Below, one piece after another: positions 1-4,531 of a DNA stretch of 4,531 nt. Under the pieces are notes generated by a model. That model saw only the letters and a list, made by a program, of their open reading frames with translations, was not told where the DNA came from and ran no database searches. The stretch is from a virus. Lineage: Duplodnaviria > Heunggongvirae > Uroviricota > Caudoviricetes. The DNA lies in IMG/VR virus record IMGVR_UViG_2713896899_000001, positions 1 through 4,531 of that record, one strand, 5' to 3'. The position numbers and the translations under genes were made by a program. Each line of letters opens with the position of its first letter. Position 1 is the stretch's first letter.

Positions 1-162
1 GATGGAAACGACTCATCGACGTACTTAATCAGCCAGGAGTTCCCAAAAATGGATAAAACACTTATGGCTATTCAGACTAAATTCACTATCGCCACTTTTA
101 TTGGCGATGAAAAGATGTTTCGTGAGGCCGTCGAAGCCTACAGGAAATGGAGGTCAAAATGA
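1..162 (+). CDS. Partial CDS: 3' end of a gene entering from upstream of the window, or alternatively a 37-aa micro-ORF starting at ATG 49; hypothetical phage protein
   Basis: Frame 1 is open from base 1 to TGA 160-162 (53 codons, ...DEKMFREAVEAYRKWRSK*). The stop overlaps the next gene's ATG (159-161) in an ATGA junction. Internal ATG at 49 is preceded by AGGAG (35-39). Absent from the ORF track because the long reading has no in-window start. I do not recognise the sequence. Confidence 0.4.
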   Translation, partial: DGNDSSTYLISQEFPKMDKTLMAIQTKFTIATFIGDEKMFREAVEAYRKWRSK

Positions 163-347
163 TTCCGGTAGAACTGGCGAAAACTCCAGAGTTAAGTCGA
201 TTAAAAAGAGAATATCACATTGCTGAGGCTCGTTACTGGCGTAAAGCGGGAGATAAATCAAAGAAACAACTTTGTTTATGGCAGGCACAAAGAGAGCGCA
301 TGAATGAGCGCGAATTTCTTTCCGCCCCATCCGAATTACCATTCTGA
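159..347 (+). CDS. Hypothetical small basic protein (62 aa) with C-terminal ...SAPSELPF; first gene of the recombination cluster
   Basis: ORF track gives 147..347, but ATG 159 has GGAGG (149-153) 5 nt upstream and forms an ATGA overlap with the upstream frame's stop, so 159 is the likelier start. Stop TGA 345-347 is embedded in the SD (GAGGTGA) of the next gene. Lys/Arg-rich. No family recognised. Confidence 0.6.
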   Translation: MIPVELAKTPELSRLKREYHIAEARYWRKAGDKSKKQLCLWQAQRERMNEREFLSAPSELPF

Positions 348-355
348 GGTGAATT

Positions 356-1036
356 ATGGGAACTGCGACATTAATACTCGGTGAGTCTGGCACCGGAAAA
401 TCAACCAGCATGAGAAATATCAATCCAGAGGAAGCAATACTTATAAAACCAATAGGCAAGCCGCTACCATTTAAATCAAAAGACTGGCTTGCATGGGATG
501 CCAGAGCAAAAAAAGGAACCGTAGTTACTACTGACAAATGGGACATAATAGTTGCTGTAATTAAGCGTGCTCACGAATACGGAAAAAGAATCGTTATTGT
601 TGATGACTTCCAGTATGTGATGAGCAATGAGTTTATGCGCCGCTCAGAAGAAAAGTCGTTTGATAAATTTACTGAGATAGGCCGCCACGCATGGGAGGTG
701 ATTAAGGCTGCACAGGATGCGCCTGATGACCTGAGAGTCTATTTTCTTGCGCACACCGAAGAAACACCTATGGGGCGCGTGAAAATGAAAACTATCGGCA
801 AAATGCTGGACGAGAAAATCACTGTTGAAGGCATGTTTACTATAGTTCTTCGCACCCTTACCCGTGATGACCAGTTCTTTTTCACCACGAAAAACAACGG
901 TGCAGACACTGTTAAATCCCCAATGGGAATGTTTGATTCCAATGAGATTGATAACGATCTCTCTTTCGTCGATGCCACTGTTTGTGATTACTACGGCATC
1001 AATAATGTTCATCAAATTAAGGAAAACGCCGCATGA
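356..1036 (+). CDS. Sak4-like phage recombination ATPase (RecA-fold P-loop NTPase, AAA_24-type), 226 aa
   Basis: N-terminal Walker A directly after the start (LILGESGTGKSTS), Walker B-like hhhhDD (RIVIVDDFQ). Size and N-terminal P-loop are typical of core-only RecA-like phage Sak4 proteins. Followed by an overlapping SSB-like gene, the arrangement known for Sak4. SD GAGG 346-349. Family call is from motif recall, not a search. Confidence 0.65.
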   Translation: MGTATLILGESGTGKSTSMRNINPEEAILIKPIGKPLPFKSKDWLAWDARAKKGTVVTTDKWDIIVAVIKRAHEYGKRIVIVDDFQYVMSNEFMRRSEEKSFDKFTEIGRHAWEVIKAAQDAPDDLRVYFLAHTEETPMGRVKMKTIGKMLDEKITVEGMFTIVLRTLTRDDQFFFTTKNNGADTVKSPMGMFDSNEIDNDLSFVDATVCDYYGINNVHQIKENAA

Positions 1037-1620
1037 GCAACGTGATTTTTACTTATAACGAAGAAGCAGCACTGACCGCAGGGCAAGGTGGTTTTATTAA
1101 CGAAACTGGCGCTCATATCATTACCATTACTGAAGCAGAACTAAAGCAATCAGAAAAAGGCGCAAAATTTATTGAATTTTCTGGCGAATCCGACGACGGA
1201 CGTAAAATCCAATATCTTAGCGTTTGTGTTCAGAAAAATGACGGCACGGAAAACAAATTTGGCGCAAATGTCGTTCACGCCATGATGGGGTGTGCCGGGA
1301 TTGGACAATTAACGCAACATATGGTTTCCGCCAGTAAATTTGTTGCACCTGAATTTCATGGAAAGAAAATCGGGTTAGTGCTCCAGAAAGTATTAACCAC
1401 AAACAAAAAGACTGGCGCAGACAGCTACCAGATGGAAATACGCATCCCGTTTATTGCACAAACAGGTCAAACCCTTAAAGAAAAGGCAGAAGGCAAGCAA
1501 CCAGAAACTATCGCCAACATGGTCGCCAGTCTCAAAGATAAAGACAATCGCTCTAAAAACGTAAGCCAGAATCATGCAGATGATTATGGTTACAGCCAGA
1601 ACGATTACCCTCCTTTCTGA
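1033..1620 (+). CDS. Non-canonical phage SSB-like protein (195 aa), probable cognate partner of the Sak4-like ATPase; acidic/aromatic C-terminal tail ending in Pro-Phe
   Basis: ATGA overlap with the Sak4 stop (ATG 1033-1035 / TGA 1034-1036), SD AAGGAA 1019-1024. C-terminus ...HADDYGYSQNDYPPF resembles the bacterial SSB tip (DDDIPF) and the T7 gp2.5 acidic tail ending in Phe. The N-terminus does not match canonical E. coli SSB, so the OB-fold is inferred only from context and tail. Confidence 0.5.
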   Translation: MSNVIFTYNEEAALTAGQGGFINETGAHIITITEAELKQSEKGAKFIEFSGESDDGRKIQYLSVCVQKNDGTENKFGANVVHAMMGCAGIGQLTQHMVSASKFVAPEFHGKKIGLVLQKVLTTNKKTGADSYQMEIRIPFIAQTGQTLKEKAEGKQPETIANMVASLKDKDNRSKNVSQNHADDYGYSQNDYPPF

Positions 1621-1643
1621 TTACTGAAAATAAGGCTCCCATT

Positions 1644-1940
1644 ATGCCAGCGCCTCTGTATGGTGCGGATGACCCGCGCAACTGCTCCGGTAGCTCCAAG
1701 GCGGAGGTGCTGGAAAATATCAAAAACAATTTCGACGCGTTTCTTGCTCTGACACCAGAAACAAAAGCAGAACGGATGTACCGACGCGATATACAACTCG
1801 CGCTAAAACAGGAGAAGGACCGAATAAACGAAACATCAATCCGACCATTCCGCAAATCCACATATACCCACTTCCCTGAATATATCGACCCGCGCCTGCG
1901 TAATTACCGCTCACGCTATGGCGCTATCAGTAATGACTGA
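1644..1940 (+). CDS. Hypothetical phage protein (98 aa)
   Basis: ORF track ORF, same strand as operon, SD AAGG 1632-1635 about 8 nt upstream of ATG. Stop TGA 1938-1940 lies inside the SD (GAGGAA) of the next gene. No recognisable domain by eye. Confidence 0.6.
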   Translation: MPAPLYGADDPRNCSGSSKAEVLENIKNNFDAFLALTPETKAERMYRRDIQLALKQEKDRINETSIRPFRKSTYTHFPEYIDPRLRNYRSRYGAISND

Positions 1941-1950
1941 GGAATTAACA

Positions 1951-2241
1951 ATGAAAACAATGAAGCTAAACATCGACCTCGGAAAATACGTTATTACCGG
2001 AACCAAACACGACCTGATTCTTAGCGAAAGAGGAATTATCAAAGAAGGCGAGAATGCAGGGAAAGAAACACTAAGTCGTATCGGTTATTACAGCAAGTTT
2101 GAGCATCTGGTCAAAGAGTTATGCAACCGTGAAATCCTGTTATCTCAGACGCAGACGCTACAGGATATTCAGCAGCATATCGAAACTTTAGGTATGTCAC
2201 TTAGCATGGCTATTGACCAGTTCATGGAGAGTAAATCATGA
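1951..2241 (+). CDS. Hypothetical phage protein (96 aa; 107 aa if started at ATG 1918)
   Basis: ORF track start is 1918. ATG 1951 is preferred because GAGGAA (1939-1944) sits 6 nt upstream, whereas 1918 has no SD and would overlap the preceding gene by 23 nt. Stop TGA 2239-2241 overlaps the next start. No family recognised. Confidence 0.6.
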
Positions 2242-2402
2242 GAGGACTTGCATACAATCCCGGCATTCTTCCGGCAGAAATGATTATTCGCCAACGCGTA
2301 AAGCCAATGCCATCGAGAGAGGAATTACTTAAGAGAAATTCTTTTCCATCAGTGAATCAAAACAAATATCTGAATGCGATGTTGCGGAGTGGGAAGAAAT
2401 GA
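2238..2402 (+). CDS. Small basic hypothetical protein (54 aa), not in the supplied ORF track
   Basis: Manual translation: [57 protein letters not shown] 2238-2240 overlaps the upstream stop (TGA 2239-2241) and its stop TGA 2400-2402 overlaps the downstream start ATG 2399-2401. SD GGAGAG 2226-2231. Fills an otherwise ~160-bp gap in a tightly packed operon. Confidence 0.5.
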
Positions 2403-2896
2403 GACAAATGACACTAATTGAGATGGATGGTTTTCTGAAAGGTAAATGCATCCCAAGTGATTTAAAGGTTAACGAAACAAACGCTGAATATCTTGTCCGT
2501 AAGTTCAGTGAACTTGAATCAAAACTCAACGAGCAGCGTGAGTATTACGAGGGCGTTATCTCGGATGGGAGTAAGCGTATTGCTGAACTGGAGAAAAGCG
2601 AAGAGCAACTCATCAACGAGCGTGACCATGCTGAGTATGCTTTAGCTGATATGTATTTTGCAGCAACCGGGAACAGGCCGGAATGGAGTAACTGTTTCAG
2701 TTTTTCAGATGCAGTAGATGCCGTAGTTGACAGAATTGCTGATTTAGAAGCTAAACAGCCATCGCCAGTAGTACCGGAAGAAAAACCAATGCCTAACCCT
2801 CTTAGCAGGTACGCGGTCGATGCTGTTGCCGCTATTGCAGAGGTGAGAGGCTGGAACGCCTGCCGCGCTGCAATGCTTCAGGGAAAAGGAGAGTGA
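2399..2896 (+). CDS. Probable Ead/Ea22-like family protein (165 aa) with central coiled-coil
   Basis: ATGA overlap with the preceding small ORF. Heptad-like, charged central segment ([17 protein letters not shown]...[15 protein letters not shown]). C-terminus ...[21 protein letters not shown] matches my recollection of the conserved C-terminal motif of lambdoid Ead/Ea22-like proteins. Unverified without HMM search. Confidence 0.5.
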
Positions 2897-2897
2897 T

Positions 2898-3452
2898 ATG
2901 ACCACTATAACCGATAAGAAACAGTATCCAGGCGAGCAATATCTTAATGAGCTGATCACCAACATAGAGTTTGCTGCAAGGGCACCAGTTGAAGTCGTGA
3001 GAGCGATGGCAGCAGAGCTACAGAAGCGGCGCGAAGCTGATAGTGCAGAACCTGTAAGCCAAACTTACAAGTTGCCAGTTAATACACCTTGCCAAGATGC
3101 GCCAGCCCATATCTGGCTGCAAACGGCTGGAGTATGGCCAGAAGATGGCGAGTTAAGCGAATTAACGTGGTGCAGCCACAATCAGCACCATGATGACACG
3201 CTATATGTTCGAGCTGACCTTGTGAATGGCAACTATCCGGTAACTCCGGATGGTTGGATAAGCTGTGGTGAGCGAATGCCGGAAGAAACGGGTGACATTA
3301 TTGTTGTTTCGGATGGCATTGTAATGTCAGGGATTTCTTATTCTCGTCGTGACGGGTTCTATATAGCCGCATTGGAGTACGACGACGATGAGCCAATTGG
3401 CGGTGTAACCCACTGGATGCCGCTACCGGAACCACCGCAGGAGGTGAAGTAA
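2898..3452 (+). CDS. Probable DUF551-domain phage protein (184 aa)
   Basis: SD AAAGGAGAG 2885-2893, ATG 2 nt after the upstream stop. C-terminal region GWISCGERMPEETGDIIVV...GGVTHWMPLPEPP fits the W...LPE...HWMPLP pattern I associate with DUF551 in enterobacterial prophages. Locally GC-rich (one 60-nt line counted at about 58% GC versus about 40-43% in the Sak4 and 1951-2241 regions). Confidence 0.5.
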   Translation: MTTITDKKQYPGEQYLNELITNIEFAARAPVEVVRAMAAELQKRREADSAEPVSQTYKLPVNTPCQDAPAHIWLQTAGVWPEDGELSELTWCSHNQHHDDTLYVRADLVNGNYPVTPDGWISCGERMPEETGDIIVVSDGIVMSGISYSRRDGFYIAALEYDDDEPIGGVTHWMPLPEPPQEVK

Positions 3453-3736
3453 TGGACTCCTTCGCGAAATATACGATTATTGACTGGATAGCCTTCCTTC
3501 AGGTTTTGCTCATCTGGTTTTATATGGCTTACAGGAGTGGACAGTGGATTGTCAGTGTAGCCTGTAGCAAGGGATGGCGTTGGTGGAACCGAAAGAATAA
3601 AAAAGCACTGGCATTGGATTCGTTTTACGAAGCATTCAATCTTAACAGCCTTCAGCCTGGTTCTGTCATTGTAGTCACCACTCAAAGCGGCATGACGATA
3701 CAAATTCACAAGCCAAAGGAGGAAGGTCGTGGCTAA
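3452..3736 (+). CDS. Small predicted single-pass membrane protein (94 aa), unknown function
   Basis: TAATG overlap with the upstream stop (TAA 3450-3452 / ATG 3452-3454), SD AGGAGG 3438-3443. About 19-residue hydrophobic stretch IIDWIAFLQVLLIWFYMAY followed by a basic cluster KGWRWWNRKNKK (positive-inside rule implies a cytoplasmic C-terminal domain). Confidence 0.55.
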   Translation: MDSFAKYTIIDWIAFLQVLLIWFYMAYRSGQWIVSVACSKGWRWWNRKNKKALALDSFYEAFNLNSLQPGSVIVVTTQSGMTIQIHKPKEEGRG

Positions 3737-4013
3737 CCTGCAACTTGCCGTCAAAGGTGAATACTTCGACGCCATGATTCGCGGAGAGAAAACGGAAGAG
3801 TATCGCCTGTGTAATGACTACTGGAATAAGCGAATCATGTTCCGGGAATATGACCGCCTGATTATCACAAAGGGATATCCGAAGCGCGACGATTCCAGCC
3901 GCAGAATTGATATTCCGTATGACGGATATGAAATCAAGACAATCACACATCCGCACTTCGGTGATAAACCGGTAAAGGTATACGCGATAAAGGTAAATAT
4001 CGGCAATGAATAA
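3729..4013 (+). CDS. Small ASCH/PUA-like fold protein (DUF3850-type), 94 aa, GTG start
   Basis: GTG 3729 preceded by a strong SD AAAGGAGGAAGG (3715-3726); overlaps the preceding gene by 8 nt. N-terminal LQLAVKGEYFDAMIRGEKTEEYR matches the ASCH-type beta1-loop-helix signature (compare E. coli YqfB [22 protein letters not shown]), followed by DRLIITKGY. Fold call is motif-based and tentative. Confidence 0.5.
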   Translation: MANLQLAVKGEYFDAMIRGEKTEEYRLCNDYWNKRIMFREYDRLIITKGYPKRDDSSRRIDIPYDGYEIKTITHPHFGDKPVKVYAIKVNIGNE

Positions 4014-4017
4014 CAAT

Positions 4018-4042
4018 CCTCGCACTCGCGGGGATTTCTTTT
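4018..4042 (+). terminator. Putative Rho-independent terminator (hairpin 1)
   Basis: Stem CCTCGC (4018-4023) / GCGGGG (4028-4033), 6 bp with one G-U pair, loop ACTC, followed by ATTTCTTTT (4034-4042). Lies 5 nt after the stop of the 3729-4013 gene. Confidence 0.45.
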
Positions 4043-4049
4043 ATCTGAA

Positions 4050-4072
4050 CTCGCTACGGCGGGTTTTGTTTT
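4050..4072 (+). terminator. Putative Rho-independent terminator (hairpin 2, tandem)
   Basis: Stem CTCGC (4050-4054) / GCGGG (4059-4063), 5 bp with one G-U pair, UACG tetraloop (UNCG-type), followed by TTTTGTTTT (4064-4072). Sequence-related to hairpin 1. Confidence 0.45.
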
Positions 4073-4085
4073 ATGGAGACAAGAA

Positions 4086-4430
4086 ATGTCAGATTTGGCT
4101 ATGAAGGTTTTGAAATGGCAATCGACTGGCGATGTTGGCATCAGTAGCGCAACTCTTGCCTCAATCGCATGTGGCCTGAAAAAGAATATCTATGGTCATA
4201 GCTTCGGTGCTCCACATGACGCAGCCGATTTCAGACGATGCGTTGCACTTGTTGAGCAGATTCCAGAAATCAGAGCTTCATTCGACAAAGTTGCAAAGCG
4301 CGTTCCGGCATTCAAAGGCATCCTCAACGAATGGGATTCCCTCGTTGCTCTGTTGAAGTCTGAAATGAAGATACACGGAAACAAAGCACCAGAGACTTAC
4401 AGAAGAATTAGCGAGTTACGCAAGGACTAA
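4086..4430 (+). CDS. Hypothetical protein (114 aa), isolated gene downstream of the terminators
   Basis: ORF track ORF, SD GGAGA 4075-4079 about 6 nt upstream of ATG 4086, stop TAA 4428-4430. Sequence [31 protein letters not shown]... has no motif I recognise and no obvious hydrophobic TM segment. Confidence 0.55.
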
Positions 4431-4435
4431 CCACA

Positions 4436-4454
4436 GCCTCACACTCGATGAGGC
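4436..4454 (+). other. Stem-loop (6-bp stem GCCTCA/TGAGGC, 7-nt loop) immediately after the last gene; not a canonical terminator
   Basis: GCCTCA (4436-4441) and TGAGGC (4449-4454) are exact reverse complements. No U-tract follows (CTGCCAGCTTC), so it is more likely an RNA stability or processing element or a protein-binding site than an intrinsic terminator. Confidence 0.3.
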
Positions 4455-4501
4455 CTGCCAGCTTCTCAATAGACTGGCCCCCTGAATCTCCAGACAACCA
4501 A

Positions 4502-4521
4502 TATCACTTAAATAAGTGATA
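4502..4521. promoter_or_regulatory. Perfect 20-bp palindrome TATCACTT-AAAT-AAGTGATA, operator-like
   Basis: Arms 4502-4509 and 4514-4521 are exact reverse complements (8 bp each) around a 4-bp AT spacer. Half-sites TATCAC/GTGATA are identical to the outer hexamers of the lambda CI/Cro operator consensus (TATCACCGCCGGTGATA) but with 8 instead of 5 intervening bp. Sits in non-coding DNA at the window edge. Confidence 0.4.
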
Positions 4522-4531
4522 GTCTTAATAC

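Follow-up and report, generated by a model that had tools for sequence, protein, structure and literature searches.

The insertion sequence IS2 (IS3 family, IS2 group) begins with a 42-bp terminal inverted repeat, IRL (PMC3299598), just inside which lies a weak extended −10 promoter, P_IRL, with the element's own OrfA/InsA protein described as its repressor (PMC3299598, citing Hu et al. 1994 and Lei & Hu 1997). This 14-kDa protein binds just upstream of P_IRL, giving strong protection at IS2 residues 39–42 (T, T, A, A) and 43–48 (A, T, A, A, G, T); its docking site has been given as 5′-TAAATAA-3′, and the extended −10 element begins with TGAT at IS2 nucleotides (nt) 48–51 (PMC3299598). Dimerisation of OrfA is mediated by residues 58–105 (Lei & Hu, as cited in PMC3219604). 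The outermost bases of IRL, TAGACT, become the −10 box of the strong junction promoter Pjunc after circularisation of the element (PMC3219604, PMC3299598). We describe here a 4,531-nt stretch of viral DNA (Caudoviricetes; IMG/VR record IMGVR_UViG_2713896899_000001, positions 1 to 4,531; hereafter ‘the window’), at the edge of which lies a 20-bp palindrome that a preliminary description of the sequence had attributed to the phage and that almost certainly belongs instead to the left end of a copy of IS2.

Related arrangements have been described in other insertion sequences. In IS1, as in IS2, a small element-encoded helix-turn-helix (HTH) protein, InsA, represses the transposase promoter by way of the terminal inverted repeats on which it acts (as indicated by references listed in PMC12095673), and in IS30 a truncated transposase covers its own promoter, a behavior that has been likened to the autoregulation of IS2 (PMC3299598). 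The IS1 and IS30 repressors differ from the InsA/OrfA protein of IS2 in both protein family and sequence. Closer to IS2 by descent, the OrfA protein of IS911 (also of the IS3 family) is reportedly without repressor function (PMC3299598), and the pairing of promoter and repressor is therefore not universal within the family.

Comparison of the window with these systems leaves us close to certain that its final 62 bases are the left end of IS2 and that the palindrome is the control site of that element, combining a repressor operator with a promoter. This is an already known, well-studied and indeed textbook feature. The parts of the site that fall in the window are as follows.

4470–4531, plus strand: IS2 nt 1–62, identical at 62/62 positions to the curated IS2A copy of E. 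coli K-12.
4470–4511, plus strand: IRL, the 42-bp left terminal inverted repeat of IS2, with its transposase binding and cleavage domains.
4502–4521: 20-bp dyad TATCACTTA-AA-TAAGTGATA, with arms at 4502–4510 and 4513–4521, corresponding to IS2 nt 33–52.
4508–4517: position of the published hydroxyl-radical footprint, IS2 nt 39–48 (TTAA followed by ATAAGT), with the docking site TAAATAA at 4509–4515 (PMC3299598).
4517–4525, plus strand: extended −10 promoter P_IRL, with TG at 4517–4518, one intervening base and the putative hexamer TAGTCT at 4520–4525; drives insC/insD.

The identity and the boundary of the element are supported by several independent comparisons. In the curated K-12 record the mobile genetic element IS2A begins at the T of TAGACTGG, which aligns to window position 4470, and the K-12 copies (IS2A–IS2K) share with the window the same boundary, the same 62 bases, and the footprinted residues (nt 39–48), TAAATAA and TGAT on the same bases; over the part seen in the window, the copy described here differs from known IS2 copies in its location alone, a spacer upstream of xis in a lambdoid prophage. 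Window positions 4468–4531 match 20,619 places in 4,710 of the 5,426 complete E. coli genomes (median three left-end matches per genome, maximum 41), which lie on chromosomes and plasmids in unrelated contexts, and 41 distinct left flanks were counted among the copies that we sampled. The window itself thus displays left-end identity, a multicopy sequence in unrelated contexts and a sharp boundary with host sequence. The remaining properties of the element were seen in other copies. A complete IS2 at locus L002, which splits the lysozyme gene rrrD, runs for 1,331 bp from TAGACTGG to GCAAATCCA, has imperfect terminal inverted repeats (42 bp for IRL and 41 bp for its right-hand counterpart, IRR) and is flanked by a 5-bp target duplication, GTTAA. 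In other copies the coding sequence that follows the left-end sequence by ∼30 bp is annotated as an IS2 family transposase with a programmed frameshift, and comprises orfA and orfB (HTH and DDE transposase) joined by a −1 frameshift. In K-12 the start of the insC1 gene (‘IS2 element protein InsA’) is IS2 nt 92; this corresponds to window position 4561, 30 bp beyond the last base of the window, and the transposase genes share their direction of transcription with the window's phage genes. Further downstream, the right end of the present copy (IRR) is expected to close with ...GGGGCAAATCCA.

The dyad occupies a position within this left end at which a terminal repeat and a promoter meet. When the left end was aligned with the reverse complement of the right end, taken from the full-length copy, the left arm, TATCACTTAA (nt 33–42), proved to be the innermost conserved block of both IRL and IRR, and the right arm (nt 43–52) an inverted copy unique to the left end of IS2. 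The dyad consequently straddles the inner boundary of IRL and the TG/−10 region of P_IRL, ∼40 bp upstream of the orfA (insC) start codon. Window positions 4508–4517 read TTAAATAAGT, positions 4509–4515 read TAAATAA and positions 4517–4520 read TGAT, in exact agreement with the published site (PMC3299598). The assignment of TAGTCT as the promoter hexamer follows from comparison with the consensus TGnTATAAT and is correspondingly provisional; the P_IRL transcription start and the orfA ATG lie beyond the window. A sigma-70 scan of the IS2 left end returned no canonical −35/−10 promoter, a result that is consistent with (although not proof of) a promoter of the extended −10 type.

The protein that would act at this site carries an HTH_Tnp_1 domain (E = 1.8e−19) and is described as an N-terminal HTH followed by a leucine-zipper-like dimerisation segment. 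InsA/OrfA would sit on the dyad formed by the inner block of IRL (nt 33–42) and its adjoining inverted copy (nt 43–52), and we infer that the whole 20-bp dyad serves as the functional unit, with a dimer occupying its two half-sites, one per monomer. Since P_IRL and the right arm overlap at the TG and −10 hexamer, bound InsA would be expected to block RNA polymerase at that promoter, keeping insC/insD (orfA/orfAB) repressed and transposition low. It would also compete with the transposase for the inner end of IRL, such that step I of IS2 transposition would be rare. In this account, the present analysis establishes that the element is IS2 and where it begins, how the dyad is placed with respect to IRL, IRR, the promoter and the ATG, and how that dyad behaves across relatives; InsA binding, repression and dimerisation are taken from the literature.

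Several expectations of the preliminary description are borne out by this assignment. It had proposed a site for a dimeric HTH repressor with a specificity other than that of lambda CI/Cro, which fits InsA/OrfA of IS2 (HTH_Tnp_1; PMC3299598), and had suggested that the site may regulate what lies just past the window, where the genes driven by P_IRL begin 30 bp beyond the edge. Its examples of a regulated target, xis/int or another moron, were mistaken, the target being the IS2 transposase genes, and neither the prophage repressor nor Cro has a part in the site. Its remark that OL would not be expected at this position was right. A location inside a coding sequence, which it had named as an outcome that would tell against a regulatory site, was not found: some 40 bp separate the palindrome from the insC start codon that follows it.

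Apart from IS2, the window corresponds to a mosaic lambdoid early-left region, with its best matches in HK620, HK629, TL-2011a and Stx phages and with genes annotated as a Sak4-like annealing protein, SSB, Ea22-like, DUF551, DUF4752 and ASCH. Related prophages and phages without the insertion match the window colinearly as far as ...TTCTCAA (ending at 4469), beyond which they run on as GATATCCAGACC... and reach a terminator, followed by the CII-dependent pI promoter, xis and int. At the insertion point the uninterrupted prophage at locus L003 reads ...TTCTCAA/GATATCC, with the slash marking the position that IS2 occupies in the window. The IS2 sequence is absent from the uninterrupted relatives, and likewise from phages 434, HK022 and HK97 at the equivalent place, so that the palindrome cannot be counted as phage DNA as had been supposed.

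4465–4469: presumed 5-bp target site CTCAA, a second copy of which would be expected at the right end of IS2, outside the window.

This target site is deduced from the uninterrupted reading of L003 together with the 5-bp duplication (GTTAA) that IS2 has generated in L002. The element sits in a ∼105-bp spacer between an ORF114-like gene (4086–4430), the last of the early-left genes of this lambdoid prophage, and the terminator/pI/xis/int module, ∼67 bp upstream of the xis start as measured in L003. The exact phage/IS2 junction, CCAGCTTCTCAATAGACTGGCCCCC, gave no match in viral contigs, in species-representative genome contigs or in the 5,426 complete E. coli genomes, and because it is missing from all of these the insertion appears to be peculiar to the source strain.

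The junction also contains an inverted repeat, CCAGCTT...AGACTGG (4452–4480), half of which is phage sequence and half IS2, and the segment 4425–4480 folds with z = −3.3. We rejected this hairpin as a feature, since it was created by the juxtaposition of sequences on insertion. A set of BLAST matches (H1–H18) in which similarity at 88% identity reached back over the phage stem-loop described below was likewise rejected, as an artefact of extension, because ahead of IS2 nt 1 the alignment contains only scattered similarity of the kind expected by chance; in those matches IS2 stands beside an HTH gene in strain YJ3, a context different from that of the window.

Both inverted repeats named in the preliminary description (a stem-loop at 4436–4454 and the palindrome at 4502–4521) are present in the sequence at those coordinates. 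The latter, which had been called perfect, consists of 9-bp arms about a non-symmetric AA centre, and is thus symmetric at 18 of 20 positions. Perfect repeats of its class (arms of at least 9 bp, spacers of 0–6) are expected 0.13 times per window and were present in 31 of 300 shuffled sequences, and the motif TATCAC-N8-GTGATA with up to two mismatches is expected 0.12 times per window (23 of 200 shuffles). By within-window statistics the palindrome is only mildly unusual, and its reality was therefore judged by comparison: thousands of IS2 copies carry it unchanged, and diverged relatives keep a dyad.

The operators of phage lambda, OR and OL, are 17-bp sites with hexamers 5 bp apart, arranged as tandem triplets in the immunity region. 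The palindrome resembles them in its outer hexamers, TATCAC/GTGATA, which are those of the lambda operator consensus, and in the occlusion of a promoter by a dimeric HTH protein; on these grounds it could be taken for a CI/Cro-type operator through which the prophage controls xis/int or a moron. It differs from them in its length (20 bp), in the 8-bp spacing of its hexamers, in being single, in being IS2 DNA and in the unrelated HTH_Tnp_1 protein that would bind it. No lambda-spaced site within two mismatches was found in the window (the best has three mismatches in 12), nor was a 17-bp site with N5 spacing or a tandem array in phage DNA such as typifies CI/Cro operators. The window holds no further copy of TATCAC-N8-GTGATA, a result that the preliminary description had itself said would count against its proposal. 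The DNA in question is moreover missing from every uninterrupted relative and turns up at thousands of places outside phage sequence. The resemblance to lambda operators, on which the preliminary description had placed weight, is coincidental.

The same description had offered a recombination site or an architectural site for IHF as further possibilities. The first of these is partly right, in that the left arm is the inner end of a terminal repeat bound by the IS2 transposase. As for the second, one match to the IHF consensus with a single mismatch does overlap the palindrome (4509–4521, minus strand), but the consensus WATCAANNNNTTR has only four matches with at most one mismatch in the window against 6.15 expected, and HU and IHF reportedly gave no enhancement of transposase binding to IS2 ends (PMC3219604). 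We give practically no credence to a lambda-like operator of the prophage or an IHF site at this position.

A palindrome of this kind might instead act as a nucleic acid hairpin, either as a DNA cruciform during transposition or as an RNA hairpin that forms in read-through transcripts (such as those of the phage pL operon) and damps activation of the transposase genes. The RNA fold of the palindrome (−7.1 kcal/mol, z = −3.8) is matched by none of 200 shuffles, although this score is uninformative, as any palindrome out-folds its own shuffles. The palindrome lies upstream of the native start site and would thus be transcribed solely by read-through, but the ribosome-binding site and ATG, 30–40 nt downstream, are left uncovered by the hairpin. 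The A/T-rich 9-bp arms make for a weak structure, and the site is already explained by a published protein footprint (PMC3299598). One further observation does fit hairpin formation: in many IS2 copies the AA at the centre is inverted to TT. Template-switching at a hairpin would produce such an inversion of the centre. Taken together, these points make a hairpin function very improbable.

The centre inversion was seen as follows. The IS2 20-mer occurs in the form TATCACTTAAATAAGTGATA in the window, in K-12 IS2A and at 31 loci (of the set L010–L072), and in the form TATCACTTATTTAAGTGATA, its exact reverse complement, at 37 loci, mostly of Shigella flexneri SFBU1023 and E. coli ECMA0423. The two forms differ within IS2 nt 41–44 (window 4510–4513), and the centre is inverted in about half of the sampled IS2 copies. 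When the base at nt 32 is considered together with the centre, the haplotypes A+AA, G+AA and G+TT are found and A+TT never is, which suggests a single AA-to-TT inversion, with the arms untouched, that subsequently spread.

We compared the left ends of 88 copies of IS2 and its relatives. The outer hexamers TATCAC/GTGATA hardly vary across the IS2/ISEc36 clade (OrfA identity of at least 91%), where only two loci, with TATTAC, and L080, with CATCAC, depart from them; the five nucleotides directly to the left of the hexamers take nine forms in the same clade. The centre of the dyad varies among relatives (TTAAATAA, TTATTTAA, TTAAGTTA, TTAAATTA and TTAAATAG). More distant relatives carry different palindromes at the same position, ∼40–60 bp upstream of orfA. 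Those from Aeromonas (L086–L089, OrfA 82% identical) have a perfect 17-bp palindrome with 8-bp arms, CCTCTTAA-C-TTAAGAGG, that exhibits double changes at the symmetric pairs 35/50 (T.A to C.G) and 37/48 (A.T to T.A). Those from Salmonella plasmids (L008 and L009, OrfA 77–78% identical) have CTCTTA-AAA-TAAGAG, and in L009 the changed half-site is found also at the inner end of IRR. The half-site pairs are accordingly ATCAC/GTGAT in IS2 and ISEc36, and CCTCT/AGAGG in the Aeromonas and Salmonella-plasmid relatives. The HTH region of OrfA differs in the Salmonella-plasmid relatives (SLVARQHGVAASQLFLW versus SHVARLYGINANQIFKW), these being the sole relatives for which OrfA was aligned.

These comparisons point to an apparent co-evolution of operator, terminal repeats and OrfA among the relatives in the IS2 group. 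The pattern is what would be expected if one HTH reads a half-site at both ends of the element and a second, inverted half-site at the left end creates a dimer site over the promoter. It is conceivable, and we advance it tentatively, that the functional InsA operator is the whole 20-bp dyad, in which the outer hexamers would act as specificity determinants that co-evolve with the recognition helix of OrfA and with the inner ends of both repeats, while the centre would be free to vary or invert.

A number of points weigh against the account given here, in part or in whole. The window covers only IS2 nt 1–62, with the right end of the element, the second CTCAA and xis all beyond its edge, and the exact junction was found in none of the collections searched. 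The literature on the InsA site (Hu et al. 1994; Lei & Hu 1997; Lewis et al. 2004) enters at second hand, through what later papers report of it. The published docking site corresponds to the 7–10 bp at the centre and not to the whole 20-bp dyad (PMC3299598). The dyad is degraded in some relatives, with arms of 6 bp in L008 and of 4 bp in L009 and in Rahnella L085, and the covariation described above rests on one or two evolutionary events. Finally, the arms are separately constrained, the left by transposase binding and the right by the promoter; because each arm has its own constraint, conservation alone does not prove that the dyad acts as a unit.

These last points lend some weight to an explanation in which the symmetry is incidental, the left arm being kept for the transposase and the right arm for the promoter while InsA reads the A/T-rich centre, TAAATAA. 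The short docking site, the independent function of each arm and the weak dyads in Rahnella and Salmonella-plasmid relatives would all be accommodated. Yet the centre, which such a mode of recognition would have InsA read, varies more among relatives than any other part of the site, with the arms fixed, and in about half of the sampled IS2 copies it is inverted with the arms intact. In addition, the Aeromonas clade has rebuilt a perfect palindrome with different arms, and InsA dimerises (Lei & Hu, as cited in PMC3219604). We consider an incidental dyad unlikely.

Copies of IS2 and of the near-identical ISEc36 type (OrfA 95–100% identical to IS2) were also encountered at loci L047, L050, L055, L073, L074 and L076. 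These copies come from assemblies that bear the names Streptosporangium, Paenisporosarcina, Lamprocystis and Brevibacterium, where the contigs are very short (558–1,543 bp), and from metagenome-assembled genomes of Collinsella (a 5,072-bp contig) and Geobacteraceae (a 14.6-kb contig). Their presence in non-enterobacterial assemblies most likely reflects contamination or mis-binning from enterobacteria.

The remaining features are located in the phage portion of the window.

4436–4454, plus strand: stem-loop GCCTCA-N7-TGAGGC, with arms at 4436–4441 and 4449–4454 and a 7-nt loop, in phage intergenic DNA outside IS2.
4086–4430, plus strand: ORF114-like gene, an open reading frame of 114 amino acids without a Pfam match.
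4015–4036 and 4047–4066, plus strand: tandem terminator-like hairpins, each with a T-run.

The preliminary description had read the stem-loop and the palindrome as one layout. That layout is an accident of insertion, because the IS2 boundary at 4469/4470 falls between the two repeats: they belong to different genetic entities and are unrelated. The stem-loop, which begins 6 nt beyond the ORF114-like stop codon, does not exceed chance. Perfect hairpins of its class (arms of at least 6 bp, loops of 3–10 nt) number 13 in the window against 9.3 ± 4.0 in dinucleotide shuffles, with 56 of 300 shuffles holding 13 or more, and its RNA fold (−9.1 kcal/mol, z = −1.35) is equalled by 20 of 200 shuffles. 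A terminator scan of the window called the hairpins at 4015–4036 and 4047–4066 and did not call the stem-loop, which is followed by CTGCCAGCTTCTCAA and lacks the T-run that follows the G+C-rich stem of a rho-independent terminator. An Rfam search of 4436–4531 returned no match, and the curated phage 434 record, which annotates the terminator, pI and the CII site downstream, has nothing at this position.

The stem-loop could nonetheless be a functional lambdoid element, for example a hairpin for RNA 3′-end formation or processing after the ORF114-like gene, or a site bound by a protein ahead of the terminator/pI/xis module. The 22-nt block that contains it, GCCTCACACTCGATGAGGCCTG (4436–4457), is near-invariant in seven diverse lambdoid phages (434, HK022, HK97, HK446, g341c, HK75 and Stx2-1717; L090–L096), despite 10-nt indels between the ORF114-like stop codon and the block; the coding and spacer flanks of the block are similarly conserved, however, and this conservation may reflect only a recently shared module. 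The stem has changed once among the seven phages, by a one-sided C-to-T change in HK75 that would keep a G.U pair in plus-strand RNA, and no compensatory change was seen among them. With the chance-level fold, the missing T-run and the lack of annotation or Rfam match added to this, we regard such a function as quite unlikely; there is no evidence of function for the stem-loop, which we treat as ordinary phage intergenic DNA unconnected to the palindrome. Several blocks of mosaic homology end just after the 22-nt block, which might mark the edge of a module or constitute a small conserved element.

The ORF114-like gene itself is widely conserved in lambdoid phages, in which it appears as ‘ORF114 (phage 434)’, HK022 gp32 or ‘N15 early protein homolog’ and is always located directly upstream of the terminator/pI/xis module. 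The two tandem terminator-like hairpins (two found against 0.6 expected) lie between this gene and an ASCH-domain open reading frame (3729–4013). A rho-independent terminator is annotated at approximately the equivalent place in the record of phage g341c, and three sub-threshold Rfam matches at 3964–4071 probably reflect the same pair of hairpins.

The palindrome raises no new question about phage repressors, and a full-dyad operator, if true, would refine a known system and not define a new one. For annotation the consequence is more direct, in that reading the palindrome as a phage operator would assign the control site of a mobile element to the regulation of the prophage. For the prophage itself, the IS2 insertion cuts off the early operon of the window from its terminator/pI/xis/int module, and may thereby affect pL-driven expression of Xis and hence excision of the prophage.

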